Source: an uncultured Saprospiraceae bacterium (GTDB taxonomy: Bacteria; Bacteroidota; Bacteroidia; Chitinophagales; Saprospiraceae). Taken from it: a stretch of 54,550 nucleotides of DNA. The notes below the pieces were generated by a model. The model was not told the origin of the DNA, did not search any database, and saw nothing but the letters and a program-made list of their open reading frames with translations. Every line of letters starts with the position of its first letter. Within the stretch, counting starts at the first letter, position 1. The stretch spans positions 1-54,550 of the forward strand of contig CAYMQY010000001.1 in the NCBI GenBank assembly GCA_964392655.1, in the 5' to 3' direction. Made by a program: the position numbers and the translations under genes. Positions 2,412 to 40,898 of this stretch are shown here, piece by piece.

Positions 2412-2453
2412 GGCATTCGACAAATACGGTTTCATCACCGGGGTTGGCGCCGC

Positions 2454-5258: not shown

Positions 5259-5275
5259 AATTCGGGTGTGTGCGA

Positions 5276-6316
5276 TCAGTCAATGGGGCACTGTTTGACG
5301 ACGGGCTTGATTTTGTACAGGCGGTAAATCAGGGCTACTTCCGGGCCGCCCCGGTTGTCGGTTGCGATAGTGAAATCGGACAGGTTCAGGTCGTAGGAAA
5401 AACCCAGCGTCCAGGTGCGCCAGTGTACTTCGGCGGTCCAGACGAATGCATCGGTGTAGCGGTGGCGGAAACTGGCGCCCACCTGCACGGCCAGTTCGTG
5501 GTAAGGCCGGGCATTGAGCAATAGGCGGCCGGCGACGCCGTACACGAGTTCGCGGTAGGTGCCTTGTTCCTGATACAGCACATGCCCCAGCAGGTCGAAC
5601 GGTTCCGACACTTGCACGAGCGCATTGCCGTGCAGCGCCATGCGGGCGGCAAGGCGCACGTCGTCGGTGTTGTTGGTCCAGAAATTATGGTCGGGGCGGT
5701 TGACGTGGTGCAGGGCGCCGCCGATGTCGAAACGGGTGCGGGTATTTCTGGCGTAGTGGCGGAAGTTGAGGCCCGCGCTGAGGTCGAAATACTGGAGGTT
5801 GGTGCTGAAAAAAGCGCCGTCTTCGTGCGTGGCGGCGCCGGGGTCGTACAGGCAGTCCACAAACTGGGCGTCGAAACTCCACTTGTTGGTGCCGAAGGAG
5901 CGCTGGCCGAATGCGGGCGTGAAGCCGAGGGAGAGGAAATTGTTTTTGGCCACCGGCAGGGTGAGGGCGACAGGGATGCCGATTTGCACGGAGGTCAGAG
6001 CGATGGAGCCTTGCCGGTCGTAATTGATCATCAGTCCGCCGGTGAGGTAGCGGTCGTAGTGGTTGCGGCGGTAGTAAATCTTGTTTTCGACGCTGCCGGA
6101 AAACGTGGTGTAGGGCACCGGCACGGCATTCCACTGGCTGCGGTAGTTGCCGACGAAGCGGACATCGCCGCCGAACACACCGTTCAACCCCGGGTTGAGA
6201 TTCAGCGGCGAGTTGGCAAACTGGGAAAAGTGTATGTCCTGGGCCAACAGAGGCGTGCCCGAGCACAAGAGGGCGAGGTACAGGCAAAATCGGCGTAGGT
6301 ATAGCGTTCTCTTCAC
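5276..6316 (-). CDS. PorP/SprF-family type IX secretion system membrane protein
   Basis: Contains the family signature AQDIHFSQFANSPLNLNPGLNG followed by a beta-barrel-like alternating pattern. I trimmed the track ORF (start 6463) to GTG 6316, giving VKRTLYLRRFCLYLALLCSGTPLLAQ as the signal peptide. Confidence 0.85.
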   Translation of the reverse strand: MKRTLYLRRFCLYLALLCSGTPLLAQDIHFSQFANSPLNLNPGLNGVFGGDVRFVGNYRSQWNAVPVPYTTFSGSVENKIYYRRNHYDRYLTGGLMINYDRQGSIALTSVQIGIPVALTLPVAKNNFLSLGFTPAFGQRSFGTNKWSFDAQFVDCLYDPGAATHEDGAFFSTNLQYFDLSAGLNFRHYARNTRTRFDIGGALHHVNRPDHNFWTNNTDDVRLAARMALHGNALVQVSEPFDLLGHVLYQEQGTYRELVYGVAGRLLLNARPYHELAVQVGASFRHRYTDAFVWTAEVHWRTWTLGFSYDLNLSDFTIATDNRGGPEVALIYRLYKIKPVVKQCPID

Positions 6317-27559: not shown

Positions 27560-28274
27560 TGTCGTTATTGGATTTGTCGTAATGTGAAACAAAAAACAAA
27601 TTTGGAACAAGGCCAAAGGTAAGAAGTTCAGTGCCTTCCACTAAAAAGATCAGCGCCCGATGTTCTCCTTTGAACACCGGGCGCATGATAAATGAATAGT
27701 GTTTGTTTGCCTGCATCGCCGGATTACGTGTGTGCTGCTCGAAAGGCGATGCTGCCGAAGGGTGTGTGTTGCGGCAATTGCTGCCGCGCGGAATGATACC
27801 GCGGAGGGAGTTTCAAGTGGAGGTTGGGGTTGGGGAGAAACGGATTTTGAGAAAAAATGTGGGGGGTAAAGGAGGGCAATCAAATGTTGTAATGCGGTTT
27901 TTGTGATGCCCGGTACAAAAGTACCGTATTCGGGCACGCTGCCAATCCGTGCAAACACCCGTTTTTTTATCAGGGAAAACCCTGAAGAAACTACTGCCCA
28001 CTAGTGATGGTAGTAGCTGCGCCTGTTCAGTCCTGCCAGTATTCCCTCTTCCCGATCTATGAAAATGGCGTTCTGATCGGATGTACAAAAAATGATTTTT
28101 TTAAAATTTTATGTTTAAAAAATTAAAATATATCAAAATTTAAAACCATTAATTTTTAATATTGCCGAATACTAAAAAACAAGACCGATAAATAATTCAG
28201 TTTTAGAATCGCCCTGACTTGTACTTATATTCGACCCTGATCCCTGTTTGCCCCGCGTGTTCATTAAAAAATCA

Positions 28275-29708
28275 ATGGCCATGAAAGCGTCCCCCCGTCC
28301 AAATGTAGGCCCATCTACCGATCCCCCTATTCCTGTCCAATTCCAGAATTTTTACCACAGCTCGGAAGCACTTCGTTTGGAAGGCTCTCTGGGTGGAGCA
28401 GGTATGCCTGTGCTGAAAGATGCCGGTCAAACTACCGGCACATTGCTCCTACTGCTTGGGGAAACTACGGCCTGGCAGGAAGCATGCGATTTTTTAGAAA
28501 TCTGCAAACAGCAGCACCGGCATGCCGTTTGTCTCGCGCTATTCAACCGTCCGCTGGAACACCACAAGGTGTGGGAGTTACTCCACTCGGGTGCCGACGA
28601 GGTGTTGCAATGGAACCAGTTGCCCGAGCCGGAACGCATCCTCCGGGCAAGGCTTGAGCGCTGGACAGCCGTAGACAACATTCTTGGATCGCCTGAAGTG
28701 CAGGAAAAACTCGTCGGCAGCAGTCCGTGTTGGCACAAACTCCTGCGGCAGGTGATAGAAATGGCGATGTTCAGCAGCGCCCCGGTGCTCCTGCTCGGCG
28801 AGAGCGGTACCGGCAAGGAACTGCTTGCACGTCTCATCCACCGGCTTGATGCTCGGGCAAACAAGCGCGATCTGGTGTTGTTGGACTGCACGACGGTGTC
28901 GCCCGAACTGTCGGGCAGCGAGTTTTTCGGCCACGAAAAAGGTGCGTTCACCAATGCCGTGTCCAACCGCGACGGGGCCTTTGCTCTGGCTGACGGCGGC
29001 ACCCTGTTTCTGGACGAGATCGGTGAACTGCCACCGGCCATGCAGGCCGAACTGCTACGCGCCGTGCAGGAAAAAATGTACAAACGCGTCGGGAGCAACT
29101 TTTGGCGGCACACCAACTTCCGGTTAGTGTCGGCCACCAACCGCGACCTGAGCGCCGAGGTACGGCACGGTCGCTTCCGCGAAGACCTGTTTTTCCGCCT
29201 TTCCGCCTGCGTATGCCACGTGCCGCCCCTGCGCAAGCGCATGGATGATGTGCCCGCTCTGGCCATCTGTTTTTTGAAACAAGCCCTGCGCACCGACACC
29301 CCGCCCCCATTCGACGAGCACCTGCTCACCTACTTGTGTACCCGCGAGTATCAGGGCAACGTGCGCGAATTGCAGCAACTCGTGTCGCGCATTGCTTACC
29401 GCCATACCGGCAACGGGCCGGTCACCGTGGGCGACCTGCCCGAATACGACCGCCCCGATATGGCCCGTCTGCAAAACCCCTGGAGCCTCTCCGATTTTGA
29501 GACGGCTCTGCGCATTGCCATTGCCAACGGAATCGGCCTGAAGGAAATCAAGCGCTGCGTCAGCAATAAAACCATGGAACTTGCGATTTCAGCATCCAAC
29601 GGGAATTTGCAGGATGCTGCCTACCAACTGCAAGTGAGCGATAGAACGATTCAACTGTATTTGGCAAGTGTACGGGATGGGGAAGTGGTGCCGGAAGGGA
29701 TGGATTAA
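28275..29708 (+). CDS. Sigma-54-dependent transcriptional activator (bacterial enhancer-binding protein) with an atypical N-terminal domain and a Fis-type helix-turn-helix
   Basis: AAA+ core with Walker A LLGESGTGKE, Walker B LFLDEIGEL and the sigma-54 contact loop GAFTNA (a variant of GAFTGA). C-terminal helix-turn-helix NGNLQDAAYQLQVSDRTIQLYL. The track start at 28248 is TTG; the first ATG is 28275. Confidence 0.85.
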   Translation: MAMKASPRPNVGPSTDPPIPVQFQNFYHSSEALRLEGSLGGAGMPVLKDAGQTTGTLLLLLGETTAWQEACDFLEICKQQHRHAVCLALFNRPLEHHKVWELLHSGADEVLQWNQLPEPERILRARLERWTAVDNILGSPEVQEKLVGSSPCWHKLLRQVIEMAMFSSAPVLLLGESGTGKELLARLIHRLDARANKRDLVLLDCTTVSPELSGSEFFGHEKGAFTNAVSNRDGAFALADGGTLFLDEIGELPPAMQAELLRAVQEKMYKRVGSNFWRHTNFRLVSATNRDLSAEVRHGRFREDLFFRLSACVCHVPPLRKRMDDVPALAICFLKQALRTDTPPPFDEHLLTYLCTREYQGNVRELQQLVSRIAYRHTGNGPVTVGDLPEYDRPDMARLQNPWSLSDFETALRIAIANGIGLKEIKRCVSNKTMELAISASNGNLQDAAYQLQVSDRTIQLYLASVRDGEVVPEGMD

Positions 29709-29709
29709 C

Positions 29710-30774
29710 TTATGGAAGAATTATTCCCCGACGCCATGTATCGGGAATTGGGGACCCTGACCCCTCCTTGTAGCTGCCGCCATCAGTCAGGCCAAGATTT
29801 TGTTTTGCCCATTCGCCGATCTGAAGCCAAGTGGTTGGCCCGGGGTCATTATCGCGGCTGGAACTGGCTTGCCGATGAGCAAAGACATAGCGGATTGTCG
29901 GTATCCTTGCTTTTAGCGCTGTCAGCAAACGGCGACCGGCTGCGATTTGTGCCGAAGTGGGTTCGCCACAAACACGACTGCCACTACCATGCCCGCGATT
30001 GACGTATTGACCGGAACTCCACCAGCACCTGCCCCTGTCATCTGCAAATGTGCCGGCAAACTCAATGCCTACGCTCCGGCTGTTGAAGCTTTGGGCGTGG
30101 TAAACAATTCTTGATTCCGGGTACAATTGAATGATACGCCCATTGGGCAAAACAACAAAGTGCGCCCCAACCCACAGGTAGTGCCGGGGGTCATTGTTTT
30201 GACTTCCGGCGGTTTGGTGCAACACCACGGCATTGACGCTGGAAAGTGCACGCGTGCCCCCCAAACAACTGGTTGCGTTTCGGGCAGATGCACACTGTCC
30301 AGGTGTGGCTTGGCCGGTAAAGTCCTCAATCGCACCAATTGCCACTGGAATCAAGGCCTCTAAGGCTCGTTTCAATGCATTCCAGGTAGCCGGCCCCAAT
30401 TTTCCGTCTGCCGTCAGCCCATTTGCTGCCTGAAATTTAGCGATGAGTTCTGCAAAAGCAGCTTCGTTCGGAGATTGATTTAAACGAAATACCTTCGACA
30501 CGATGTCATTGTAATGCCGGAGCCAGCCGACCGAAGCCGCGTTTTTTTTGTTGTAGGCCACAGCACTCTGAAGTGCATTACTGCCGAGCTCATCCAGCCA
30601 CTCATCCTCGTTCGTGTGCAGACTTTCTCGAGTCGGCGCCCGACGACAAGTCGGGCAATTGCAGTTTGCAGCATGGTATGTTTTGCCTTTTTGGCAATTC
30701 GAGCAGCCACAGCCACAAGAATGCCCGGATGGAGAGGCTTCCATTTCGAGTAATTCATCAAGGTAAGTACGCAT
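29710..30774 (-). CDS. N-acetylmuramoyl-L-alanine amidase (Amidase_2, AmpD/PGRP type) with a Cys-rich N-terminal extension and a PG_binding_1 repeat; no signal peptide
   Basis: PG_binding_1-like segment AKFQAANGLTADGKLGPATWNALKRAL. Amidase_2 blocks are AVVLHQTAG, AHFVVLPNGRIIQLY, NSRSVGIEFAG and FAHRQASSSRDND (His-x9-Asp spacing as in AmpD). The track start at 30810 is TTG. I prefer ATG 30774, which gives MRTYLDELLEME, the same first seven residues as the protease gene. Confidence 0.8.
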   Translation of the reverse strand: MRTYLDELLEMEASPSGHSCGCGCSNCQKGKTYHAANCNCPTCRRAPTRESLHTNEDEWLDELGSNALQSAVAYNKKNAASVGWLRHYNDIVSKVFRLNQSPNEAAFAELIAKFQAANGLTADGKLGPATWNALKRALEALIPVAIGAIEDFTGQATPGQCASARNATSCLGGTRALSSVNAVVLHQTAGSQNNDPRHYLWVGAHFVVLPNGRIIQLYPESRIVYHAQSFNSRSVGIEFAGTFADDRGRCWWSSGQYVNRGHGSGSRVCGEPTSAQIAAGRRLLTALKARIPTIRYVFAHRQASSSRDNDPGPTTWLQIGEWAKQNLGLTDGGSYKEGSGSPIPDTWRRGIILP

Positions 30775-30806
30775 TGTTTTTTCTGTTTGACCATCTGAGA
30801 ACCGAG

Positions 30807-31340
30807 TCAACCAACTCGCATAATTTCATCTAAAACCGTTTCATATTGTTGATAGGGTCCTCGCTGGTAGCCTCCCTGGTTTGTCCCTTTTGTGTACTCC
30901 CTCCGGGGTGGTTCTGCCCGGAGCCAAATCTCGACACGGCGATTCTTTTCAGGTCTGTCGGCGGAAACAAGCGTTAACTTACCCTCCGTATTCAACGTCA
31001 CCGGAACGGGAAATTTCAATTGAGCCCTGTACTTGTCATGCAAGGCGTAAAGTAGATGTGAAGCGGCTGAACTGGCTCTTTTCAAGCCGAGGTAATGGTT
31101 GAAGGTGAATGATCCACTTGTGTCGGCAAAACCGACAATCACTATTTCCAACACCGGTTGGGATGTTTGATGTGAATCGGCAATCATTTTTGCAAGATTG
31201 TTCAGGGCTTTAATGTGGTCGGGAAGAAGATCCGATTTGTTTAGTCGAAAACCATCAATCGTGAACGATTGAGGAACCCCGGTTTGGACGAATGCTCGCG
31301 GGGATGTGGTGGAGTCGGGAGACATGTTGTAGCCGTTCAT
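30807..31340 (-). CDS. OmpA-like peptidoglycan-binding domain protein; no signal peptide
   Basis: The pattern IVGFADTSGSFTFNHYLGLKRASSAASHL...NRRVEIWL fits an OmpA_C-like domain. I prefer ATG 31340 (MNGYNMSPD); the track start is 31412. The C-terminus ends ...YETVLDEIMRVG. Confidence 0.7.
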   Translation of the reverse strand: MNGYNMSPDSTTSPRAFVQTGVPQSFTIDGFRLNKSDLLPDHIKALNNLAKMIADSHQTSQPVLEIVIVGFADTSGSFTFNHYLGLKRASSAASHLLYALHDKYRAQLKFPVPVTLNTEGKLTLVSADRPEKNRRVEIWLRAEPPRREYTKGTNQGGYQRGPYQQYETVLDEIMRVG

Positions 31341-31399
31341 AATCAGGTTGTTTTTACAAATTAGAGAATGAGTTTTTTTTGAAATTGGCAAGCGACAGG

Positions 31400-32272
31400 T
31401 TATTTGAGCCAAGCCTGGACTTGGGTGTACACCTCGTTATTAAATAAAATGCCTCGGTTGTGGGAGTAAATTTCCTGTCCACCACTACATCCTGCTCCGG
31501 GACTTTTTGTGCAACCATCAAGATCTCCGCAGGCGCCGGTGTGAATACCTGCCAAAAAACGCTGGCGAGGAATACAGTCGTTTTCTCCCCAGACCATGTA
31601 CCATATTGGTGAACCACTGTGACCCGGGCAGGTGTCACCTTTGTAGGTAAATCTGTTTTTTTGAACAACCCCACCGATCCTGGGCTCCATATTGTCCATA
31701 GGCTCATCATCCCACCATTGGGTGAACGGCGCCTTGTCGGAAGGGTAGCCGCAGACTGTGACAACTTTGCCTTTCAAAAAATCTTTGTCCATGGGTATTT
31801 GGTGCGTGCCTTGGCCACAGCTCCCCCACCAACCCAATCGGGTATTTTGGATAGCCGTAAACTTCTTTTTTCCTACCTCTTCATTCAGAATGATCACCGC
31901 GTAATCGTGCCGGCGGTCAAAAGCGTTACGCCACTCGTCCCGTAGTCGAAAGACCGTTGTTGTGTATTCACCAAAAGGCTTCGATGCACCATGTCGTCCT
32001 GGAGATACCGTTATTCGAATAGGCAACAGTCCTTTTAATGGCCCGGAGTTTGGGACAAGGACATGCCCCGCCGTAAGCACATGGCGCGGACTTATAAGCA
32101 ATCCTGTTGCGGGCAATTGATCTGTATGTTCTACATTATTCGCATCTCGATATGTACAAATGATTGAACAAATCCACCGGAACGGCGGCCGAGTGTTGTT
32201 GTCAATTATACTACGAGTATCTGCACCCACAATTTCAAGTTCATTCCAGATTTCATCCAGATACGTTCGCAT
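31400..32272 (-). CDS. Trypsin-fold (clan PA, S1B/V8-like) serine protease; no signal peptide
   Basis: Candidate catalytic triad: His in LTAGHVL, Asp in RRHDYAVIIL, Ser in GDTCPGHSGSPIW (GxSGSP as in V8-type enzymes). Starts MRTYLDEIWNELE at ATG 32272. Confidence 0.8.
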   Translation of the reverse strand: MRTYLDEIWNELEIVGADTRSIIDNNTRPPFRWICSIICTYRDANNVEHTDQLPATGLLISPRHVLTAGHVLVPNSGPLKGLLPIRITVSPGRHGASKPFGEYTTTVFRLRDEWRNAFDRRHDYAVIILNEEVGKKKFTAIQNTRLGWWGSCGQGTHQIPMDKDFLKGKVVTVCGYPSDKAPFTQWWDDEPMDNMEPRIGGVVQKNRFTYKGDTCPGHSGSPIWYMVWGENDCIPRQRFLAGIHTGACGDLDGCTKSPGAGCSGGQEIYSHNRGILFNNEVYTQVQAWLK

Positions 32273-32326
32273 TGTTTCAAATTTTTTGTCCGACCACCTC
32301 GGCCGGCATCGTGAAAAAATAAGGTG

Positions 32327-33280
32327 TCAACCCACCACTCCCTCCCGCAGCCAAGGGTCGCCGGCAACCGGCAAACGGGCATCGGCAGTGGAAAACGGCG
32401 GCTCGGTTCGAAGGGGTACGGTTCGGGTTCTGGAGGTTAAGCGCAGAAAATTCCCGCCCAGCACAAGGGCCTCCTGTTCGGGCGGCAGGCGCAGGGCAAA
32501 TACTTTTTCCAGTTCCACGCCGGGGTGCAGCCACGGTCCGTCGGATCCGAACAGCACCTTGTGGGCGCCGGCCCGCCGCACGGCCATCTCCAGCAGATCG
32601 AAGCGTCGCACGCCGGAGGTGTCGGTGAACACATTGGCGTGGCGCTCGAGGTACGGGATAAAATTCAGTTGCGCTTTCCAGTCGTCAGCAAAACTTCCGA
32701 GGTGCGGAATGATGAAGTTCACGTCGGGATACTCAGTCGCGAACAGCTCGATACTTGTCACATTTCCCATCACGTCGTACAACACCGGCAGCCGGAATGC
32801 CCGGGCTGATTCGCATACCTCACGGGTGATGTGCGCATCGTGCCGGTGTGCCTTGATGCCCCGAAAACCGTACTCTTCCACCGCTTCGCGCACCAGATCG
32901 AACACACGCCCCGCATCGCGCCCGGCATGCACGAAGGCAAAGCCGGAAAAGCGCTCGGGATGCTGCCGTACCAATCGGGCTACCATCCGGTTGGCCGCCC
33001 GGTAGTCAGAGTGAAACGCTGCGAACAGGTTGATTCTCTCGATGCCCGACTCGTCGGCCCAGCGCAGAAACTTAGTCAGGTCGGCCCGCGTATCCCAGGG
33101 ACCGTTGAGTCCGTCACCGGGGCCGTAGTGGCAGTGCGCGTCTATGACCGGAGTTTGCCGGCGTCGTCGCTCGCGCCACTTCGGGTATCGGTTGAAACCA
33201 GCACAGGCAGGACACATACAGGCATGCGAGTAGCCGGCACCTGCGATGCAACCGCGCAGGGTGTTAGTATCAAATTTCAT
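32327..33280 (-). CDS. Metal-dependent TIM-barrel amidohydrolase (Amidohydro_2-like) with a Cys-rich N-terminal extension
   Basis: HxH metal motif VIDAHCH, plus IPHLGSF and the late Asp in LFGSDGPWLHP. The N-terminal extension carries ...SHACMCPACAGF. Confidence 0.8.
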   Translation of the reverse strand: MKFDTNTLRGCIAGAGYSHACMCPACAGFNRYPKWRERRRRQTPVIDAHCHYGPGDGLNGPWDTRADLTKFLRWADESGIERINLFAAFHSDYRAANRMVARLVRQHPERFSGFAFVHAGRDAGRVFDLVREAVEEYGFRGIKAHRHDAHITREVCESARAFRLPVLYDVMGNVTSIELFATEYPDVNFIIPHLGSFADDWKAQLNFIPYLERHANVFTDTSGVRRFDLLEMAVRRAGAHKVLFGSDGPWLHPGVELEKVFALRLPPEQEALVLGGNFLRLTSRTRTVPLRTEPPFSTADARLPVAGDPWLREGVVG

Positions 33281-33343: not shown

Positions 33344-35515
33344 TCAGGCCACTTTGCCGCGCTGCTCCAGGAGCCGGCGTTGCAGGTGGATCGAAGGTTG
33401 AACAGCATCTATCCGCCCGCCGGTGATATCGGCAGTGAGATCCACCCCTGTGACGGCGCGGTAGGCGTGCATGTACGCTTGTATCTGCGGGCGCCAGAAG
33501 TTGGCCCAGTTGGCCGCCGAAAAGCGATTGGTCACGCTTGTCCAGTCTCCAAACCGGATAGAGAGCAGCAGTTGTTCGCCAAATACTCCGAGGTCACGAA
33601 AATGGGACACATTGGTCTTGGTCCAACCCATCAGGTTGTTGAGCGCCGCGACACGATCCATCCACGGCTCGGGGTAGGCCACCATGATTCGAGTGGGCAG
33701 AAATTCCCGAAACTCAGGCCGTGCCAACAACCACTGCTGCATCAGCATTTCCGACCGCGCCACTGAAGGCAGATCGCCATACTGGTTGTGCGCGCCTTCG
33801 GACAATACGAGGTGAACTTCCTTGAGTGCGTTCAGGATCGGGAAGGCGTCGGGTTGCACTGTCATGTCATCCGCCTGTTTGTAGTATCTGGTGGTCAGGT
33901 TTAGTAGCGTATGGAACGCTTCAATGAACTTGGAGCGGCTGTCGGCAAAACGCATATTCTGTACAGCAGTACCCTGGAGCGTGATACCGTAGTGGTGGTC
34001 GTACTCGTATGCGCGACGGCGCACGGTAAGGCGGTGTTGTTCATCCTGCAAGTACCCCCACATGAGGTTGCTGAGCGGCCGCAGCGGATCAATTTCGAGG
34101 TGCGCAAGAGGATCAACCTGACCGGGACCTTTGATGTTTTGAAATCGGCGTCCAATCGCATTGAGTCCTTGCACCATCATGCTTTCTTCCATCCAGTACG
34201 ACCAGATGAGCTCGAGGAAACAGGGTGTGGCGAGTTTACTCTGAATAATACCGAAGCAGTTTGTGTCGGTTGAGGTGTTGCCCGTACTGGAGTACACCTG
34301 CAAGGCTTCTTCAAGGGCCAGGGTCTTGAGATCGGAATCTTTCAACTTGCGCCGAATAACCGCCAGGTACGGGATTGTTGACACAGCGCCGTTTACAGAT
34401 TCCTTGTACTCGTTCCACCACTCGTCCAGTTTTTTGACATCGGGATTCCCGTTCACCAAAGGCACATTGCTGTTCAAATTTTCCAGCGTGCTTTCATCAA
34501 AAACGCCGTCGGTCATACAATTGACCATAACAAACGATTCGGTGGCTACTTTAAGGCTGTGGTAACCATCTACGCCCATGAACGGTAAGGCCCGCGTTTG
34601 GCTCAGGCTTTTTACTTTGCCTTGCATCTTGGAGTTTTTGGTCAATGATGTTTGCGTGGCGCCGCAAAAAACCTCATCCATGAAATGGTGGAAATTCGTG
34701 AACGACAAGTCTTGCGTGCTTTTCTGGATGATCATCCACAAAGCGAGGTCGTAGGTGATCTGACCGGCAGAGGGCTGCAAGCGGGCGTTGATCGTATTGG
34801 ACAACTTGCTGGCGATGGTTGCGCTCAGATCGGCAAATGAATCAGCGATCTCATCGGCCACCTTACCCAGCGGATTGGTGTTGGAGTTCGCGCCGTCCGG
34901 CAAAAGCAACAGTTCGAAATTGGTTTTCAACTCTGCATTGAATGCCTCCAACAGTGGATCATCAACCGAAATTGCCGTTGACAATAAACCCAGCGTGACA
35001 GAGGGTGTACCAAAAACCAGTTGCGGATACAGAATGCCCGTCGTTTGCGTCTGAGCAGGAATATTGCCCAAAAATTTGAGGTGGACCAGCCAAACGGCAG
35101 TAAGCGCATCTGTGCTCGAAGCGGCTTGTAGCGCTACCGTCGTATGGCGCAAGTTTGCCAATGCCGGCGAGGACAAACCCGCACCGGTGTTCATGTCCAT
35201 GTATCCAATTTGAGGATTGCTCGTCGCTTGGTTGTCGTTAAACACCACGTCTTGGAGAAAGCGTCCGAAATCATCAGCATTGGTCAGGTCATAAACTTCT
35301 CCGGTAAACGTGGCTTGTGTCGGAATGGTCGTGCTAGTCGGGTCAATGGCAATCTCGAACGACATCTCAGTGGTGAACGGAACACTGGCCCCTACCGTGG
35401 TTTGGTTGACATCAACGTTCAGGGACGTAAGTTCCAGGATGACATCAACCGCCTCGACATTCTGTGCAGCCGTCCGTTGGTATCGGAGCCTCAGTTTATC
35501 AAAATTTGCACTCAT
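33344..35515 (-). CDS. Large (723 aa) hypothetical protein; no recognisable domain or signal peptide
   Basis: Clean ATG at 35515, 13 nt after the upstream stop. Amino-acid composition is balanced, unlike the shadow ORFs on other frames. Distinctive blocks include FLELIWSYWMEESMMVQGLNAIGRRFQN. Confidence 0.75.
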   Translation of the reverse strand: MSANFDKLRLRYQRTAAQNVEAVDVILELTSLNVDVNQTTVGASVPFTTEMSFEIAIDPTSTTIPTQATFTGEVYDLTNADDFGRFLQDVVFNDNQATSNPQIGYMDMNTGAGLSSPALANLRHTTVALQAASSTDALTAVWLVHLKFLGNIPAQTQTTGILYPQLVFGTPSVTLGLLSTAISVDDPLLEAFNAELKTNFELLLLPDGANSNTNPLGKVADEIADSFADLSATIASKLSNTINARLQPSAGQITYDLALWMIIQKSTQDLSFTNFHHFMDEVFCGATQTSLTKNSKMQGKVKSLSQTRALPFMGVDGYHSLKVATESFVMVNCMTDGVFDESTLENLNSNVPLVNGNPDVKKLDEWWNEYKESVNGAVSTIPYLAVIRRKLKDSDLKTLALEEALQVYSSTGNTSTDTNCFGIIQSKLATPCFLELIWSYWMEESMMVQGLNAIGRRFQNIKGPGQVDPLAHLEIDPLRPLSNLMWGYLQDEQHRLTVRRRAYEYDHHYGITLQGTAVQNMRFADSRSKFIEAFHTLLNLTTRYYKQADDMTVQPDAFPILNALKEVHLVLSEGAHNQYGDLPSVARSEMLMQQWLLARPEFREFLPTRIMVAYPEPWMDRVAALNNLMGWTKTNVSHFRDLGVFGEQLLLSIRFGDWTSVTNRFSAANWANFWRPQIQAYMHAYRAVTGVDLTADITGGRIDAVQPSIHLQRRLLEQRGKVA

Positions 35516-35528
35516 AATTTTTCAAATT

Positions 35529-36860
35529 TTAAAGTGAACGTTGTTGTTGCATAACCGCCCACTGGAACAGCATTCCTGTGAGGGTTTTGTTTTCGGCAAA
35601 TGGGGTAATGGCGTGGTCGGCCCGGGCCTGCCCAACTGCGGCGAACACCATGCCCGGACGGGCCGAATACATGGCCCGGGGATGCTGTTGCCACAGTCGG
35701 TACATCTGCCGGAGCCGCTCCGGTTGGCGTTCGTTCAGCGGAAACACGTCGCGGAGCGCCGCTCCCCGCAGTGCCTGCGGCCGGTGCAGCAGGATGGTCT
35801 GTACAAAATCCGGCAGCGCCTCGTGCAAGGCCCGAATGATCGTTTGCTGTGCCGCAGGCTGTTCGCCCGGCGGGTAGAAATTTTCCCAGATGCGCTCCAG
35901 GCGGTCCCACTGCGGGTCGGGGTACAGCACCCGCCCGAAAGCAATGCTTATCTTGACCCGAATCCAGGGGAAGGGGTGCGGATCGCCGTCGGGAAGCCGG
36001 AACACGAAATACTCCGGCAGGCTCACTACACCGATCAGTCCGGTGGTAGCGCTCACGCCCAGGGTGGCTACTGACCAGACGTCGGACAAAATTTCCGAAA
36101 TCCACAGGCGGTAGAGTTTCCAGGCCGTGCTGCGTTGTGGTTCCTGTTCGGCCTTTTGTTCCAGCATCGCCGTGACGGTGTTAACCAAATCGAGCAGCGC
36201 TGCGCCCTGATGCCCCACCTCGTGTACCAGCGACGAACCGATGCCGCTTCCCACCATTCGTTCCCGAGGCACCTTGATGATAGCCACCGGGTTGGAATGA
36301 CCACCCGGCAAACGGGTTCGGGCGCGCCGGATGGCGGCCCCGTGGCCGCGGTCGAGGTAGCAGATCAGCGGCGGCGGATGGTAGTAGTCGCCGTCGAGGC
36401 GCAAGGTGTCGCGGGCAAGTATATCGAGTCCTGCCAACCAGATGCCTGTTTCGTGTTCGCTGCGCTGGTTGAGCACATCGGCAAAAATGTCGAAGGTGTC
36501 GAGCAGGGCATTGAACCGCAACTTAAGCAAGGAAAAGCCCGTTTGCAGACGTTTGGGCGATTCTTCCGGGTTGTCCTGCAGACCGGTGATAAACCGTCGT
36601 ACCTGGCGTCCCAGTTGTTTGCGCCCGCTGCGGATCAGGTCGTGGATGTGACGCAAAGCCCGGTTTTCCAGCCCTGCTGCCACCACCATCGGCATGGTTG
36701 CCTCGAAGGGCTTGACCTGTACCAACCGTGCCAGCAGCGCCTGCGCTTCGCCGATGAGGTGTTGCCGATGTATATCGGAAACCTGACTGTCGGCGCCCGT
36801 TGCGGGTGTTGCCTCGGTCACACGCCCGTGAGGATGAGTTGATTGCCTTGCCGGTACCAT
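35529..36860 (-). CDS. Hypothetical protein with a single HExxH motif (possible zinc metallopeptidase)
   Basis: Contains SSLVHEVGHQGAALLD, with a downstream acidic segment WISEILSDVW about 35 aa later. ATG 36860 overlaps the upstream gene by 43 nt. The alternative in-frame GTG at 36821 overlaps the upstream TGA as GTGA. Confidence 0.7.
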   Translation of the reverse strand: MVPARQSTHPHGRVTEATPATGADSQVSDIHRQHLIGEAQALLARLVQVKPFEATMPMVVAAGLENRALRHIHDLIRSGRKQLGRQVRRFITGLQDNPEESPKRLQTGFSLLKLRFNALLDTFDIFADVLNQRSEHETGIWLAGLDILARDTLRLDGDYYHPPPLICYLDRGHGAAIRRARTRLPGGHSNPVAIIKVPRERMVGSGIGSSLVHEVGHQGAALLDLVNTVTAMLEQKAEQEPQRSTAWKLYRLWISEILSDVWSVATLGVSATTGLIGVVSLPEYFVFRLPDGDPHPFPWIRVKISIAFGRVLYPDPQWDRLERIWENFYPPGEQPAAQQTIIRALHEALPDFVQTILLHRPQALRGAALRDVFPLNERQPERLRQMYRLWQQHPRAMYSARPGMVFAAVGQARADHAITPFAENKTLTGMLFQWAVMQQQRSL

Positions 36861-37468
36861 GTTCCGCTGCTTTGTGCTTGTTGTTGTTCGGGCATCGGAG
36901 GCGTCATCGGCTCATCGGTTTCCTGCATCATGGTGTTGGCGCCGCGAGCAGCCCAAAGCAGACCGGGAAAATTCCGGCGAGCAGCCTGACTCAGGATTCC
37001 ATGCACCATTCGGCGGTTGACCGGCTGACCCGATTGTGCCTGTTGGGCAATATGTCCGGCGGTTTGCCGGGCGGTACGGATGAATTTCCGGGCAAGTGGC
37101 AATTCATTTTCAAACTCGGCCTCGTATTCATTGAGGTAACGGTCGGCAAGCCATGAGCCGGCTTTGTTGCCCCAGTCGGAGCCGGTTTGTCCGCCGATGT
37201 ACCCGCCGATTTTGGCACCGATGGAAGGCAGGGCTTGCCGGCCAACCGATTTGAGGCCCGACACCACCTGCCCTTTGATGGCCTGGCCCATGGGCGAGTT
37301 GTACAGTTTTTTGGCGCCGCCCCAGGCGCGTTTGAGCAGTTTGCCGAGGAAGTAGTCAAGTTCGGCCTCGCTCTGCACATTGAGCAGTTCGTACGCCAGT
37401 TCGTTTTCTTCCATTTCCAGGGTGACTTCGGAGTTGAGTTCGTATGCTTCAAAATTCTCGTAATTCAT
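36818..37468 (-). CDS. Glycine-zipper protein B (216 aa), paralog of the upstream gene
   Basis: Acidic N-terminus, then the ELAYELLNVQSEAELDYFLGKLLKRA helix. (GxxxG)5 zipper G-AKI-G-GYI-G-GQT-G-SDW-G-NKA-G, a basic middle region, and C-terminal SSGTWYRQGNQLILTGV. Confidence 0.7.
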   Translation of the reverse strand: MNYENFEAYELNSEVTLEMEENELAYELLNVQSEAELDYFLGKLLKRAWGGAKKLYNSPMGQAIKGQVVSGLKSVGRQALPSIGAKIGGYIGGQTGSDWGNKAGSWLADRYLNEYEAEFENELPLARKFIRTARQTAGHIAQQAQSGQPVNRRMVHGILSQAARRNFPGLLWAARGANTMMQETDEPMTPPMPEQQQAQSSGTWYRQGNQLILTGV

Positions 37469-37489: not shown

Positions 37490-38239
37490 TTAGAGTGTGA
37501 CGATGATTTGGTCGCCCTGGCGCGTCCAGGTGCCGGAGTTGGGGAAATCTGGTGCTGTGGTTCCGCCGCCACCGCCGTTGGATGTCGGGGCATTGAACGA
37601 AATATTACTGCCGCCAACGGGGGTGAGCAAACCAGGAGCATGTTTGGAGGCCGCCATTTTGAGGGCGTTGCGGGCAATAGCCCAAGGGGATACGCCACGT
37701 CTTCCGCGTGCACGGCGCATACCGGATGCCGTACGGCGGGCAGCGGAGTTTGACAGGCGTACGATCCGGCGGGCGACTTCAAATTCGCGGTCTTCATTGC
37801 TCATGCCCTCCAGGTTTACTTCAAACAGAGTGGAGGCCCAACTACCGAGTTTGCCGCCAATCATCCCACCGACCGGACCACCGAAAAACGACCCGGCGGC
37901 TTTGCCTACAACCGGCAAGGCTGTTTTGGCTACTTTTTTCAAACCGCCGATGAGCGCCTGACCCGCACTGGATTTGGCGAAGTTGGATACCCCGCGGGCG
38001 GCTCGGCGAACCAATTTGCCGAGAAACTGGTCGAGTTCTTCCTCGCTGTTCACGGCCAACAATTCGGCAGCCAGTTCGTATTCGGCTTCCTGACTCAGGC
38101 CGTATTCGCCTTCCCACTCTTCCTCGCCCTCCCATTCGCCTTCGTAGTCGCCTTCGTACTCCCCTTCATAATTGTACTCCTGGTCAAATTCGTTGTTTTC
38201 GAATCCGCCTTCGTTGAGGAAACCATATTCATGGCCCAT
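37490..38239 (-). CDS. Glycine-zipper protein A (249 aa) with an E/Y/G/W-rich acidic leader
   Basis: N-terminal EYEGDYEGEWEGEEEWEGEY repeats, then EYELAAELLAVNSEEELDQFLGKLVRRA. (GxxxG)4 zipper G-SFF-G-GPV-G-GMI-G-GKL-G, an Arg-rich segment, and C-terminal NSGTWTRQGDQIIVTL. Confidence 0.7.
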   Translation of the reverse strand: MGHEYGFLNEGGFENNEFDQEYNYEGEYEGDYEGEWEGEEEWEGEYGLSQEAEYELAAELLAVNSEEELDQFLGKLVRRAARGVSNFAKSSAGQALIGGLKKVAKTALPVVGKAAGSFFGGPVGGMIGGKLGSWASTLFEVNLEGMSNEDREFEVARRIVRLSNSAARRTASGMRRARGRRGVSPWAIARNALKMAASKHAPGLLTPVGGSNISFNAPTSNGGGGGTTAPDFPNSGTWTRQGDQIIVTL

Positions 38240-38519
38240 TTCCTAGTTCATGATGCGATCCATGTTGTGCATAGCAGATAAATTTTGTTTGAATGAATAA
38301 ATGGAGAAAGCATGCTATGCCAATATCCTTTCAAGCAGGATGCCGAAAAAGATAAACCATTGAAAATCAGTTGTAATTGAAAAAAACAGCGAATTTTTTT
38401 TCGGAAAGACCGAAATGGGCAGGGTGGGCGCGAAATTTTTTTCAGGGGTTTTTCCGGGCGAAAAAAATGCTGTAAAAATCATATTTACAACGACTTACGC
38501 CTCAAACACAACACTTGGC

Positions 38520-39506
38520 CTAATGCCCCTCATGCTCAAACACCGCCTCTACTAATTTCAACGCTGAACTGCGAAATTTCCCCGCAATACCTGTCGGAAG
38601 TTCTTCCGACATAAGTAACGGAGCCTCTGCAAACGTGCGGAGCCATTGTACCTCCCGGTACGAAGCCCCGGTAGCAGGGTCTGACTTGGGATCGGATTGT
38701 ATGATGCCCAAACCATACAATTGCATTTTTCCGCTGATGGCGAGTACGATTTCGCCCGTTTGCGCCCGACGGGCCAATGTGCGTACACCTTTCGCCCGAG
38801 CAGCAGCGGCCTCGGCAGCGAGCAGGGGCCACATTTCGTCGAACAGGTCGGTGTCCCACAATCGGTAGGCAGCCCAGTATGGCCGGAGTATTTCCTGCGG
38901 ATTCAACGGCAGGTGATGCATCCGAAAATATGGCTCCCATGCCTCGTTTTTTTCCTGCAAACGTATCCACCAAACGCCTGCGCCGCTGCTGATGCGCCGC
39001 CGCAAATCAGTCCGTTGAATCTGTGTGTTTTGAAAAAGGGGGAATGCGGCAAAAGACTTGACCTCGGCAGGGCGTATTTTCCAAATGTGTACCGACAAAC
39101 CTTTCAGGCGACTGAATTCCTGCTGAAATGAGCCAAGAAGCACAAGGTCATCGGTAGCGATGAGATTTTCGGCATTGCTGCTGTATGTCCAGTTAAACGA
39201 GCCGGTGAGCAGCAGGCGCTCGTCGAGCAGGGCAAACTTGTGGTGCATGAGCGCCGTGTCGCGGTATGCGTACAGGCTTCCGCCGAGTTTTATAAATTTT
39301 TGAAAATCCAGTCCATTCGGATGAATGTTCTGGCTGTCGTACTCCAGCAGGAGTTCGACCGGGATACCGGCACGCAGTTTTTTCAAAAGCGTCTCGAAAA
39401 TATCGCGGTGGGAAAACCAGCAAACGGCAATGCGGATGCTGGTTCGGGCATCGGCAAGATACCGGCAAAGCACGGCGGACAGGTTTTGGAAATATACTTC
39501 AGGCAT
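38520..39506 (-). CDS. Phospholipase D/nuclease superfamily protein (single HKD motif) fused to an unassigned ~180-aa C-terminal domain
   Basis: Canonical HxK(x4)D(x6)GSxN motif: HHKFALLDERLLLTGSFN. ATG at 39506. No signal peptide. Confidence 0.8.
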   Translation of the reverse strand: MPEVYFQNLSAVLCRYLADARTSIRIAVCWFSHRDIFETLLKKLRAGIPVELLLEYDSQNIHPNGLDFQKFIKLGGSLYAYRDTALMHHKFALLDERLLLTGSFNWTYSSNAENLIATDDLVLLGSFQQEFSRLKGLSVHIWKIRPAEVKSFAAFPLFQNTQIQRTDLRRRISSGAGVWWIRLQEKNEAWEPYFRMHHLPLNPQEILRPYWAAYRLWDTDLFDEMWPLLAAEAAAARAKGVRTLARRAQTGEIVLAISGKMQLYGLGIIQSDPKSDPATGASYREVQWLRTFAEAPLLMSEELPTGIAGKFRSSALKLVEAVFEHEGH

Positions 39507-39543
39507 AATCGCTGCCTTTTATTCAAGTCAACTCTCCACACAA

Positions 39544-39924
39544 TCAGGTAGCCGGTGGTGTATTTTCTGAATTTTTCTGAAATACCTTCCGCAACTGGCT
39601 GGGCAGCAAACTGATTCGTTGTCCCAACCAGCGCTCCAGCGTAATGGCCAACAGGGCATAACCTTCGGTAACCCCCGGCGCCGGCACCACAATAATGACG
39701 AAAAAAGGCAAAAAGCGCGGGATGTCCCGCAACTGTTCTTTGGCCTTCTGCAACTCTTCTTCGGAGGGCTGTTTGTGTTTGGACAACAGGAGCAACTTGC
39801 CTGCGCCGTGTCTGGCATAAGTGCGCATCATCTGCTTGGTCTCCACACCTTCCAAAAATAACGCCCACAACAGCATGCGCGGAAAGCGGATAATGCGCTG
39901 GAATTGTGTGCGGATGTAGTACAT
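39544..39924 (-). CDS. Small membrane protein with a LETM1-like segment
   Basis: PSEEELQKAKEQLRDIPRFLPFFVIIVVPAPGV...LLPSQL resembles the LETM1 pattern (charged helix, then a hydrophobic PF..F..VP segment, then LPS) as I remember it. It fits the 37-47 nt spacing of the flanking genes. Confidence 0.5.
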   Translation of the reverse strand: MYYIRTQFQRIIRFPRMLLWALFLEGVETKQMMRTYARHGAGKLLLLSKHKQPSEEELQKAKEQLRDIPRFLPFFVIIVVPAPGVTEGYALLAITLERWLGQRISLLPSQLRKVFQKNSENTPPAT

Positions 39925-39971
39925 GACGTGCGGGTTGGGGAAGGCAATCTAAAACGATCGTGATCAAGTGC

Positions 39972-40898
39972 TTATTTCTCCGGAACCTTGTTCGGATTCA
40001 GCAGCTCGTAAAACTGATCGAGTTTCGGCAAAATGATGATTCGGGTACGGCGATTGATTGCACGCCCGGCGTCGGTATTGTTGGAAGCCAAGGTGTTGTA
40101 TTCGCCGCGCCCGGCAGCAATGAGCCGTTTTGGGTCAATGTTGTAGTTTTTTTGCAACAACCGTACCACCGATGTAGCGCGTTTCACACTGAGATCCCAG
40201 TTGTCGTCCATGCAGGCATTTTTGATGGGCACGTTGTCGGTGTAACCTTCCACCATGACCTCCAGATCGGGGCGCGACTCGATGATTTTCGCAATTTTGC
40301 CCAACACCTCATGCGCACGCGGTGTGAGCATAAAACTGCCGCTTTGGTACAGCATCCGGTCGGAGAGGTTGACGAACACTACCGTCTTGTCCACTTTTAC
40401 TTCCACATCCTGATCGTCAATGCCGTCGCGTAGTACGCTTTTCAGATTGACGGCAAGGGCGAGATTAATGGAGTCGGCACGGGTACGGGCCAGTTGAAGC
40501 AGGTGGATGTACTTGTCTTTTTTCTCCAACTGTGCGAGTGTTTCGCGGATGTTTTCATTGGCAGATTTGGACAAGGTGGTCAGGTCGGTCACTTGTGTGA
40601 GTTGGCGATCGCGCTGCGCTTGCACATCGGTAACCTGCGCTTTCAGGTCTTTGATTTGATCTTCGCGTACCTGAAGTGCCTTTTGAGAACCACCCAGATC
40701 AGCCTGCAATTTGAAGCGCTCCTGTTCACAGGCAGAAAGGCGGTTGCTCAGGTCGCTGATTCGTGCGCCGCAGGCAGTAAGATCGCGGTTGGCCGCTTCA
40801 AATTCAGACTGCAGGGAGAGGTATTTTTTTTTGCTGACACAGGCCCCGAGGGCAATCGTTACACACAAAAAAAGGAAAATTCTGGTGGTGTGGCGCAT
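39972..40898 (-). CDS. OmpA/MotB-family lipoprotein with a coiled-coil N-terminal region
   Basis: Lipobox IALGAC. Heptad-rich region (LQADLGGSQKALQVREDQIKDLKAQV). OmpA_C-like domain GYTDNVPI...NWDLSVKRATSVVRLL...NRRTRIIILP. Confidence 0.85.
   Translation of the reverse strand: MRHTTRIFLFLCVTIALGACVSKKKYLSLQSEFEAANRDLTACGARISDLSNRLSACEQERFKLQADLGGSQKALQVREDQIKDLKAQVTDVQAQRDRQLTQVTDLTTLSKSANENIRETLAQLEKKDKYIHLLQLARTRADSINLALAVNLKSVLRDGIDDQDVEVKVDKTVVFVNLSDRMLYQSGSFMLTPRAHEVLGKIAKIIESRPDLEVMVEGYTDNVPIKNACMDDNWDLSVKRATSVVRLLQKNYNIDPKRLIAAGRGEYNTLASNNTDAGRAINRRTRIIILPKLDQFYELLNPNKVPEK

Follow-up and report, generated by a model that had tools for sequence, protein, structure and literature searches.

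Within a 54.5-kb stretch of DNA from an uncultured Saprospiraceae bacterium (contig CAYMQY010000001.1, positions 1 to 54,550; the whole stretch analysed is called the window), two otherwise unrelated enzymes of one gene cassette, an S1 protease and an N-acetylmuramoyl-L-alanine amidase of the Amidase_2 family, open with the same seven residues, MRTYLDE. The heptapeptide begins a nine-residue motif that is conserved at the level of the peptide, is associated within the cassette loci exclusively with cassette cargo, stays in place when that cargo is swapped, and gives way to alternative tags in other lineages. Because the motif is terminal, conserved as a peptide and lineage-specific, and is carried by co-regulated cassette cargo without a classical signal, it can be read as a terminal recognition or leader peptide by which a changeable set of proteins directed at peptidoglycan is marked for the core of a conserved cassette under sigma-54 control, whose clients they would be; this reading is given an even chance of being right.

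The initial annotation had placed the heptapeptide on both enzymes, and translation, a six-frame scan and BLASTP and BLASTN comparisons bear it out. On the minus strand, the protease gene (31400-32272) reads MRTYLDEIWNELEIVGADTR from ATG 32272 and encodes 290 amino acids (aa), and the amidase gene (29710-30774) reads MRTYLDELLEMEASPSGHSCGCGC from ATG 30774, inside an open reading frame (ORF) running from TTG 30810, and encodes 354 aa. The protease tag is written ATG CGA ACG TAT CTG GAT GAA and the amidase tag ATG CGT ACT TAC CTT GAT GAA; as first noted, the codons for R, T, Y and L, four of the seven, differ at the third base only. BLASTP finds residues 1-8 as the only common part of the two proteins, and the sole BLASTN match between the genes is the 10-nt AAACAATGCG. 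In the six-frame translation of the whole window, MRTYLDE occurs at these two protein starts only. The looser pattern T[YFVIL]LDE[ILMV], for which a rough estimate gives about 0.15 chance matches per window, adds one match: between the two enzymes lies the gene of an OmpA-like protein, and its 12 C-terminal residues fit the pattern (YETVLDEIMRVG, 30819-30842). The identity of the two N-termini is far above chance, and both chance and recent duplication are ruled out as its origin by the synonymous-site differences and the lack of any other similarity. A cause at the mRNA level, such as an AT-rich start region, is likewise ruled out, because the amino acids are kept while the codons vary and the motif also occurs C-terminally.

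With the motif extended to nine residues, the protease tag is MRTYLDEIW (codons 1-9, 32246-32272, minus strand), as defined by translation and by a consensus of 27 sequences; the amidase tag is MRTYLDELL (30748-30774, minus strand), as defined by translation and orthologue starts; and the C-terminal copy in the OmpA-like protein is ETVLDEIM (30819-30842, minus strand), as defined by the pattern scan of the window and by three orthologues. The tag peptides are MRTYLDEIWNELE, MRTYLDELLEMEASPSGHSCGCGCSNC... and the C-terminal end of the OmpA-like protein. ATG 30774 is assigned as the amidase start because homologues begin at the tag methionine (P0101, MRTFLDEIF; P0103, MKTLLDEIL; P0104, MKTLLDELL) and the in-frame peptides upstream of it are unrelated (LTRFSDGQTEKT in the window, TVKHFYT in the related cassette L001, ...KPVKIIDI in L088); sequence conservation sets in abruptly at the ATG. 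The same two observations rule out TTG 30810, translation from which would have made the motif internal.

Across the 27 tag-bearing sequences, the consensus is M-[RK]-T-[LY]-L-D-E-I-L, with L5 in 23, D6 in 25, E7 in 23, I8 in 24 and L9 in 20 of them; positions 1-9 are conserved and positions 10-16 are not. The motif-bearing relatives come from Saprospiraceae and Chitinophagaceae cassettes. In particular, the motif opens S1 proteases (P0001, P0003/4, P0019, P0028, P0086 and the protease of L016), Amidase_2 enzymes, a Peptidase_M74 protein (P0112), a Peptidase_M23 protein (P0154), an Extensin-like_C protein and a purely peptidoglycan-binding protein of L088, and a 440-aa peptidoglycan-binding protein of L001; most tagged enzymes also have a PG_binding_1 domain. 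It is kept across cassettes whose 723-aa marker proteins, described below, are only about 50% identical.

Among close cassettes, the leader is constant and the catalytic domain is exchanged. Near-identical leaders precede Amidase_2 in the window and L090, Extensin-like_C in L088 and M23 in L001. The synteny of L001 with the window extends to the PLD-like and OmpA lipoprotein genes in the flank, and L001 holds M74, M23 and the 440-aa protein where the window holds the protease, the OmpA-like protein and the amidase; L088 has the order protease, OmpA-like protein, Extensin-like_C, and L090 carries the OmpA-like protein and the amidase. The motif persists in homologous cassettes, as had been proposed for checking, even with M74, M23 or Extensin-like_C as the enzyme. 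The OmpA-like protein has no N-terminal tag; its related ending, also pointed out initially, is kept as a C-terminal ET[VI]LDEIM in the orthologues of L088, L089 and L090, behind a Gly/Pro/Gln-rich linker that varies among orthologues. The motif is therefore a terminal element able to sit at either end of a protein.

A scan of 87 loci (3.2 million six-frame residues) for the tag motif gave 19 matches. Seventeen of them open ORFs that follow closely on the marker gene, each of the near-identical loci L001-L003 and L004/L005 being counted in its own right, and two are internal chance matches. ORF pairs with at least six of nine N-terminal residues in common number 14 of 812 inside cassettes, as against 3 of 5258 in the flanks. 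Seven cassettes (the window, L088, L012, L013, L020, L092 and L149) have proteins that share an N-terminus and are otherwise unrelated, and 10 of the 10 protease or amidase homologue contexts inspected lie in such cassettes. As separate observations, the string MRT[LQ]LDEILA.HTGQ is an internal ClpP helix in metagenome loci (L094-L147), tag-like strings open TrpC-like and TssC-like proteins (named from sequence alone) in the same set, and the nonapeptide is not restricted to the cassette.

Outside the MRTYLDE-type lineage, two other shared tags are found, FEAEPF and MFGNILSSIF. In L092 (7305-11050), ...[LI]xFEAEPF is the common start of three proteins (OmpA-like, VanY peptidase and S1 protease). 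A tag of this type opens cargo in Nitrospira and Acidobacteriota loci and is present in many protease homologues; in L091, the protease is LDNIL-tagged. In L149 (10001-11454), MFGNILSSIFSEMEYE is common to an Amidase_2 enzyme and an unrelated 182-aa protein, and the leader DNA is nearly identical over about 95 nt between the two genes, which points to recent conversion. The tags in the window, L012 and L092 differ at synonymous sites. Together, these two patterns imply that the leaders are both spread by recombination and held by selection on the peptide, and the synonymous differences, with the contrast between positions 1-9 and 10-16 in the 27 sequences, sustain the original argument for selection on the peptide and no recent DNA duplication. 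Many of the N-terminal extensions of protease homologues P0006-P0038 hold one or two copies of HPxLGxGRRVxR in Glu/Phe-rich acidic sequence.

A Sec signal consists of a positive N-region followed by 10-20 hydrophobic residues, to which Tat signals add a twin arginine and lipoproteins a lipobox Cys. No such signal was found on either enzyme: averaged over 19 residues, Kyte-Doolittle hydropathy peaks at 1.07 in the protease and at 1.04 in the amidase, neither maximum is N-terminal, and the first 25 residues of both carry a net negative charge. Hydropathy and charge thus agree with the initial annotation, which had credited neither enzyme with a signal peptide. Moreover, no signal peptide or transmembrane segment was found on any cassette protein; the flanking OmpA lipoprotein (39972-40898) does show a signal peptide. 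For type IX secretion, Pfam searches found no Por_Secre_tail domain on the cassette proteins, and found it on two other proteins of the window.

The protease (trypsin-fold, V8-like, no signal peptide) matches Pfam Trypsin and Trypsin_2, the former with 26.9 bits against a cut-off of 20.6, and its translation shows the catalytic-triad motifs TAGH, DYAVI and GHSGSP; its nearest PDB relative, a weak match, is the glutamyl endopeptidase 1P3C. Its catalytic domain follows the tag directly. Of 65 protease homologues, 43 have a Glu just before the conserved start of that domain, [IV][IV]G.D.R; the usual form of the junction is ELE|IVG. By analogy with V8-type glutamyl endopeptidases, and from the conservation of this junction, the 13-residue MRTYLDEIWNELE (32234-32272, minus strand) may be the complete propeptide, cleaved at ELE|IVG. 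In the amidase (Pfam and PHROG endolysin families), as in the M23, M74 and Extensin-like_C enzymes, a Cys module and a peptidoglycan-binding domain come between the tag and the catalytic domain, which are over 100 residues apart; in the amidase, the tag, the Cys module, PG_binding_1 and Amidase_2 follow one another. The amidase module, read from the translation (CGCGCSNC...CNCPTC, 30646-30717, minus strand), has two CxCxxC knuckles and is probably metal-binding. One or two such knuckles stand behind the tag in most cargo, including homologues with other catalytic domains, and are often followed by a basic [YH]xNW[KR]ERR stretch. The OmpA-like peptidoglycan-binding protein (177 aa, 30807-31340, minus strand; Pfam OmpA, NCBIfam OmpA-type) has no signal peptide. 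The Amidohydro_2 protein (Pfam; 32327-33280, minus strand) has, in its first 45 or so residues, the Cys and basic part of the leader (ACMCPAC...YPKWRERRRRQ) without the LDEIL motif, as seen by comparison with the separate leader proteins of L012, L014, L016 and L020. In Janthinobacterium and Chitinophaga cassettes, the variable slots (L006, 13176-13988; L007, 13069-13953) hold a protein with a sub-threshold GIY-YIG match and a 294-aa protein, the latter with a CNCQSC...WRERR leader; from these variable proteins it follows that the cargo probably does not consist only of cell-wall enzymes.

In the window, the cassette runs in the order small protein A, small protein B, 443-aa HExxH protein, 723-aa protein, Amidohydro_2 protein, protease, OmpA-like protein, amidase, and ends with a convergent sigma-54 enhancer-binding protein (28248-29708, plus strand, start codon uncertain; Pfam Sigma54_activat, E 6.5e-56). 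The same architecture is present in every context inspected, with the activator gene at the same position in the complete related cassettes; an aminotransferase-like gene is frequent in other cassettes and absent from this one. Immunity genes are not evident next to the enzymes: the genes for the protease, the OmpA-like protein and the amidase adjoin one another, and the convergent activator comes directly after them; an uncharacterised ORF of about 195 aa stands after the last enzyme in L012, L014 and L016. A full-text literature search found no description of this cassette.

Comparison of orthologous upstream regions identifies a sigma-54-type -24/-12 element, cGGCATCCTGCTTGa (38331-38345, minus strand), upstream of small protein A. 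TGGCAC-N5-TTGC/TTGA is conserved there in Bacteroidota loci; the window copy is degenerate (cGGCAT-N5-TTGa), and the consensus TGGCAC-N5-TTGC is found at the same place in L012, L013, L014, L016 and L019. A consensus scan of the window for sigma-54 promoters did no better than a scan of shuffled sequence. Many tagged genes are preceded, 15-45 nt upstream, by a TTCAC motif, a GC-rich hairpin of 6-7 bp and an A-rich stretch (window 32290-32316, minus strand), an element also present before tagged genes of L001, L088, L090 and L012-L016; RNAalifold predicts six pairs from 10 sequences, with compensatory changes in four. This element may act in the processing or stability of the mRNA, or may belong to the unit that is exchanged in cargo swaps. 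Directly upstream of the cassette lie genes for a PLD-like (NucT/DrmC-like) protein, a 126-aa protein and an OmpA-family lipoprotein (38520-40898, minus strand), which are syntenic in the close relative L001/L009 and not in more distant cassettes. Elsewhere in the window, a 1623-aa ORF (456-5327, plus strand) has no Pfam match at E up to 0.001.

The 723-aa protein (33344-35515, minus strand) serves as the cassette marker. Its homologues number at least 1812, none of them named, and relatives occur in 392 species genomes, which belong to the Bacteroidota, Proteobacteria, Nitrospirota and Acidobacteriota; the carriers include Saprospiraceae, Chitinophagaceae, Janthinobacterium, Massilia, Nitrospira, Nitrosomonas, Ensifer, Acidobacteriota and methanotrophs. 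Its AlphaFold2 (AF2) model, with a predicted local distance difference test score (pLDDT) of 73, consists of an N-terminal beta domain and a helical C-terminal part, for which Foldseek gave no significant fold match in the PDB or a viral library. A phage origin is ruled out, since the marker is absent from 50,697 phage records; on plasmids, it is found on four megaplasmids only.

The 443-aa protein (35529-36860, minus strand) is an HExxH protein of the gluzincin type. H213, E214, H217, E256, D260 and H295 are invariant in 39 sequences and form the gluzincin signature on a sheet-helix-helix core. The protein has 751 representative clusters, and its AF2 model (pLDDT 94, predicted template modelling score 0.90) has no significant PDB fold match by Foldseek; on the strength of this model, it appears to be a new zincin family. 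For the marker and the zincin alike, nothing was found in Pfam (also at E up to 5), NCBIfam, PHROGs, PADLOC, PDB sequence and profile, or Foldseek searches. The zincin is a candidate leader peptidase or tag receptor.

The two small proteins show no Pfam, NCBIfam or PADLOC family match, and their PHROGs matches are weak and non-diagnostic. Both have a strongly acidic N-terminal part, then a conserved helix, E[LM]ELAxELLxVxxExELDQFLGK, and last a basic, Gly-rich segment with GxWxRxGxxIxL at its end. Small protein B (216 aa, 36818-37468, minus strand) has the acidic N-terminus, the helix ELAYELLNVQSEAELDYFLGKL, the Gly-rich basic segment and the C-terminal GTWYRQGNQLIL. Small protein A (37490-38272, minus strand) comprises an ORF at 37490-38239 and a conserved MHNMDRIMN start at 38272; an in-frame TAG (38243-38245) splits MHNMDRIMN (ATG 38272) from MGHEYGF... 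(ATG 38239) where relatives have Glu, and could be a nonsense mutation, an assembly error or a restart. The N-terminus MH[DN][ILM]D[RK]T matches in frame at 74 places across loci of several phyla. Co-variation of the ELDQFLG helix with the tag is ruled out, as the helix is constant in FEAEPF-tag lineages. Small protein B and the amidohydrolase are unlikely tag receptors, L091 with its LDNIL-tagged protease lacking both.

If the tag is a recognition or leader peptide, the enzymes would be made in the cytoplasm without Sec or Tat signals, and the tag would be recognised by a conserved core component, to which the CxCxxC module behind it may contribute. The most likely receptor would be the zincin, alone or with the 723-aa protein, because the zincin is the only conserved protein with an evident peptide-handling activity. 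The core component would then hold, process or hand over the enzyme for release; for the protease, loss of the tag at ELE|IVG would expose the catalytic domain's own N-terminus, in the manner of V8-type glutamyl endopeptidases. New cargo would join by gaining a leader through recombination. Overall, binding of the tag by a core protein, its cleavage and a resulting export are the steps that may connect the motif to a function.

Going further, the tag may be the address label of an unrecognised, widespread, sigma-54-controlled protein-deployment system, in which a soluble core reads lineage-specific terminal peptides and then activates and releases interchangeable cell-wall hydrolases and nucleases without Sec, Tat or a known secretion apparatus. 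The proposed core would comprise the acidic, Gly-rich pro-proteins, the new-fold zincin and the 650-780-aa protein without known relatives. This wider proposal is put forward tentatively, as somewhat likelier to be wrong than right.

Several results weigh against a recognition peptide read by the cassette core. The only ATPase encoded in the cassette is the transcriptional activator, and neither a membrane protein nor a known translocon is among its products, so the export route is entirely hypothetical. The lack of evident immunity genes is unusual for weapons against other bacteria. The motif is short and, alone, not diagnostic of the cassette: a metagenome scan for tag DNA returned 55 matches, only two of them cassettes and 17 of them an internal ClpP helix; chance and ClpP together make up most of the matches, and the scan carries no information on function. 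Further, the cargo of L017, L019, L022, L024 and L148 includes proteins with the CxCxxC part only or with no recognisable tag. Finally, the amphipathic character of the tag is not significant when its hydrophobic moment is compared with shuffled sequences (fractions 0.08 to 0.71).

One alternative is mutual binding: the three terminal peptides, on protease, OmpA-like protein and amidase, would associate with one another, perhaps in a small helical bundle, and so tether the two hydrolases to a peptidoglycan-binding anchor, with which they would work as a single complex. The motif does occur on three adjacent genes, one carrier is a pure peptidoglycan-binding module with the motif at the opposite end, and PG_binding_1 is present on most tagged enzymes. 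However, most cassettes have no OmpA-like partner, and L023 holds a single tagged protein, as judged by a crude ORF caller whose first pass missed a second tagged ORF in L013 and L020; the change of tag type with the lineage and the whole cassette fits a shared receptor equally well. Such mutual assembly is considered unlikely.

The position of the protease tag, in the propeptide place right before the conserved mature N-terminus, would also suit a safety device, in which the tag is an inhibitory pro-segment or a degradation signal that keeps the enzymes harmless in the cytoplasm and is not an address. The N-terminal extensions are acidic and the mature parts of the small proteins basic, a layout resembled by the acidic pro-pieces of cationic toxins. 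Known V8-type glutamyl endopeptidases, which are Sec-secreted, are a close parallel to this protease, since they too have a pro-segment right before the catalytic domain, with Glu before the junction in most homologues here, and a trypsin fold whose His/Asp/Ser triad is present in this protease; they differ in that the pro-segment here has 13 residues, the motif is common to non-protease proteins and there is no signal peptide. A safety device does not, however, explain why over 100 residues separate the tag from the catalytic domain in the amidase, M23, M74 and Extensin-like_C enzymes, or why the non-enzymatic OmpA-like protein has a C-terminal copy; and if the tag were a degron read by a universal protease, complete differences among lineages would be unexpected. 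It is therefore regarded as improbable, to a similar degree as mutual assembly.

Less probable still is a recombination scar, in which the shared 5' end and the upstream hairpin form a junction for cargo exchange and the peptide has no function. The near-identical leader DNA of L149, the conserved TTCAC-hairpin-A-rich element before many tagged genes and the frequent cargo swapping are what such a junction would leave. Against it stand the tags of the window, L012 and L092, which have diverged at synonymous sites and strictly kept their amino acids, and the persistence of the motif across cassettes with divergent markers; moreover, the C-terminal copy of the OmpA-like protein cannot act as a 5' junction.

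The cassette is present in Nitrospira and Nitrosomonas, of which type VI and contractile injection systems are not known to be typical. A signal for such a secretion system encoded elsewhere, with the core proteins as adaptors or chaperones, is a very doubtful explanation, despite the short N-terminal marker regions that define the RIX (PMC10435454) and WHIX (PMC12135965) classes of type VI cargo effectors, the likeness of the peptidoglycan hydrolases, nucleases and pore-former-like cargo to type VI effector sets, and a Tle1-like gene near L092, as no sheath, tube or baseplate gene was found in the window or the inspected 10-kb flanks and no immunity genes are evident.

Returning to a recognition or leader peptide, the tag resembles the targeting peptides of encapsulins and bacterial microcompartments (BMCs), double-glycine leaders and type VI markers. 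As far as the cassette and its flanks show, it is a member of none of these classes: searches there turned up no shell genes, no Gly-Gly site with an ATP-binding cassette (ABC) exporter, no injection-system genes and no immunity genes. Encapsulin and BMC peptides are likewise short (about 7-15 residues), sit on several unrelated co-encoded proteins at either terminus behind a variable linker, and depend on the lineage in sequence. In contrast to those systems, no HK97-fold gene was found here (Pfam and NCBIfam on the cassette proteins; the 723-aa model is without a fold match) and no BMC-H or BMC-P shell genes (Pfam on the cassette proteins and ten further large ORFs of the window), the cargo consists of cell-wall hydrolases and not metabolic enzymes, and the motif is unrelated in sequence. 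BMC peptides form a terminal amphipathic helix joined by a flexible linker; here, a variable linker precedes the OmpA-like copy, and the hydrophobic moment does not differ significantly from that of shuffled sequences.

The double-glycine leaders of class II bacteriocins and related ribosomally synthesised and post-translationally modified peptide precursors share with the tag an acidic and hydrophobic N-terminal leader common to different products of a locus, a dedicated peptidase in the locus (here the candidate zincin) and the exchange of leader-plus-cargo modules. They differ in that no Gly-Gly site is present here, the protease junction being Glu|Ile; no C39 peptidase or ABC exporter was found in the cassette by Pfam and NCBIfam, the candidate peptidase being a new zincin; and the substrates are full-size enzymes of 180-440 aa. 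With the MIX, RIX and WHIX markers of type VI effectors and the payload signals of contractile injection systems, the tag shares a conserved N-terminus, which in those effectors sets the route of delivery, C-terminal domains that are swapped among close relatives, and cargo that includes peptidoglycan hydrolases and nucleases, but it is far shorter, its conserved neighbours have no known relatives, and spike genes, too, were not found in the window or the inspected 10-kb flanks. Polymorphic toxins also combine a constant N-terminal region with exchanged catalytic domains, here Amidase_2, Extensin-like_C and M23, but no cognate immunity gene lies immediately downstream of each enzyme in this cassette. 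Overall, the finding is best read as a form of the targeting or leader-peptide principle, attached to a widespread cassette with uncharacterised core proteins.

Peptidoglycan hydrolases act only after leaving the cytoplasm. The tagged enzymes have no signal peptide, and a conserved nine-residue label goes with whichever enzyme occupies the cassette. If this label is read by the cassette core, it would constitute a new bacterial way of marking and deploying lytic enzymes. Through it, one could find the cargo of a system that is uncharacterised yet present in hundreds of species, nitrifiers, rhizobia and putative predators among them, and it would supply a very short tag for engineering. It would also give a first functional context to two large protein families without annotation, detectable domain or structural relatives.

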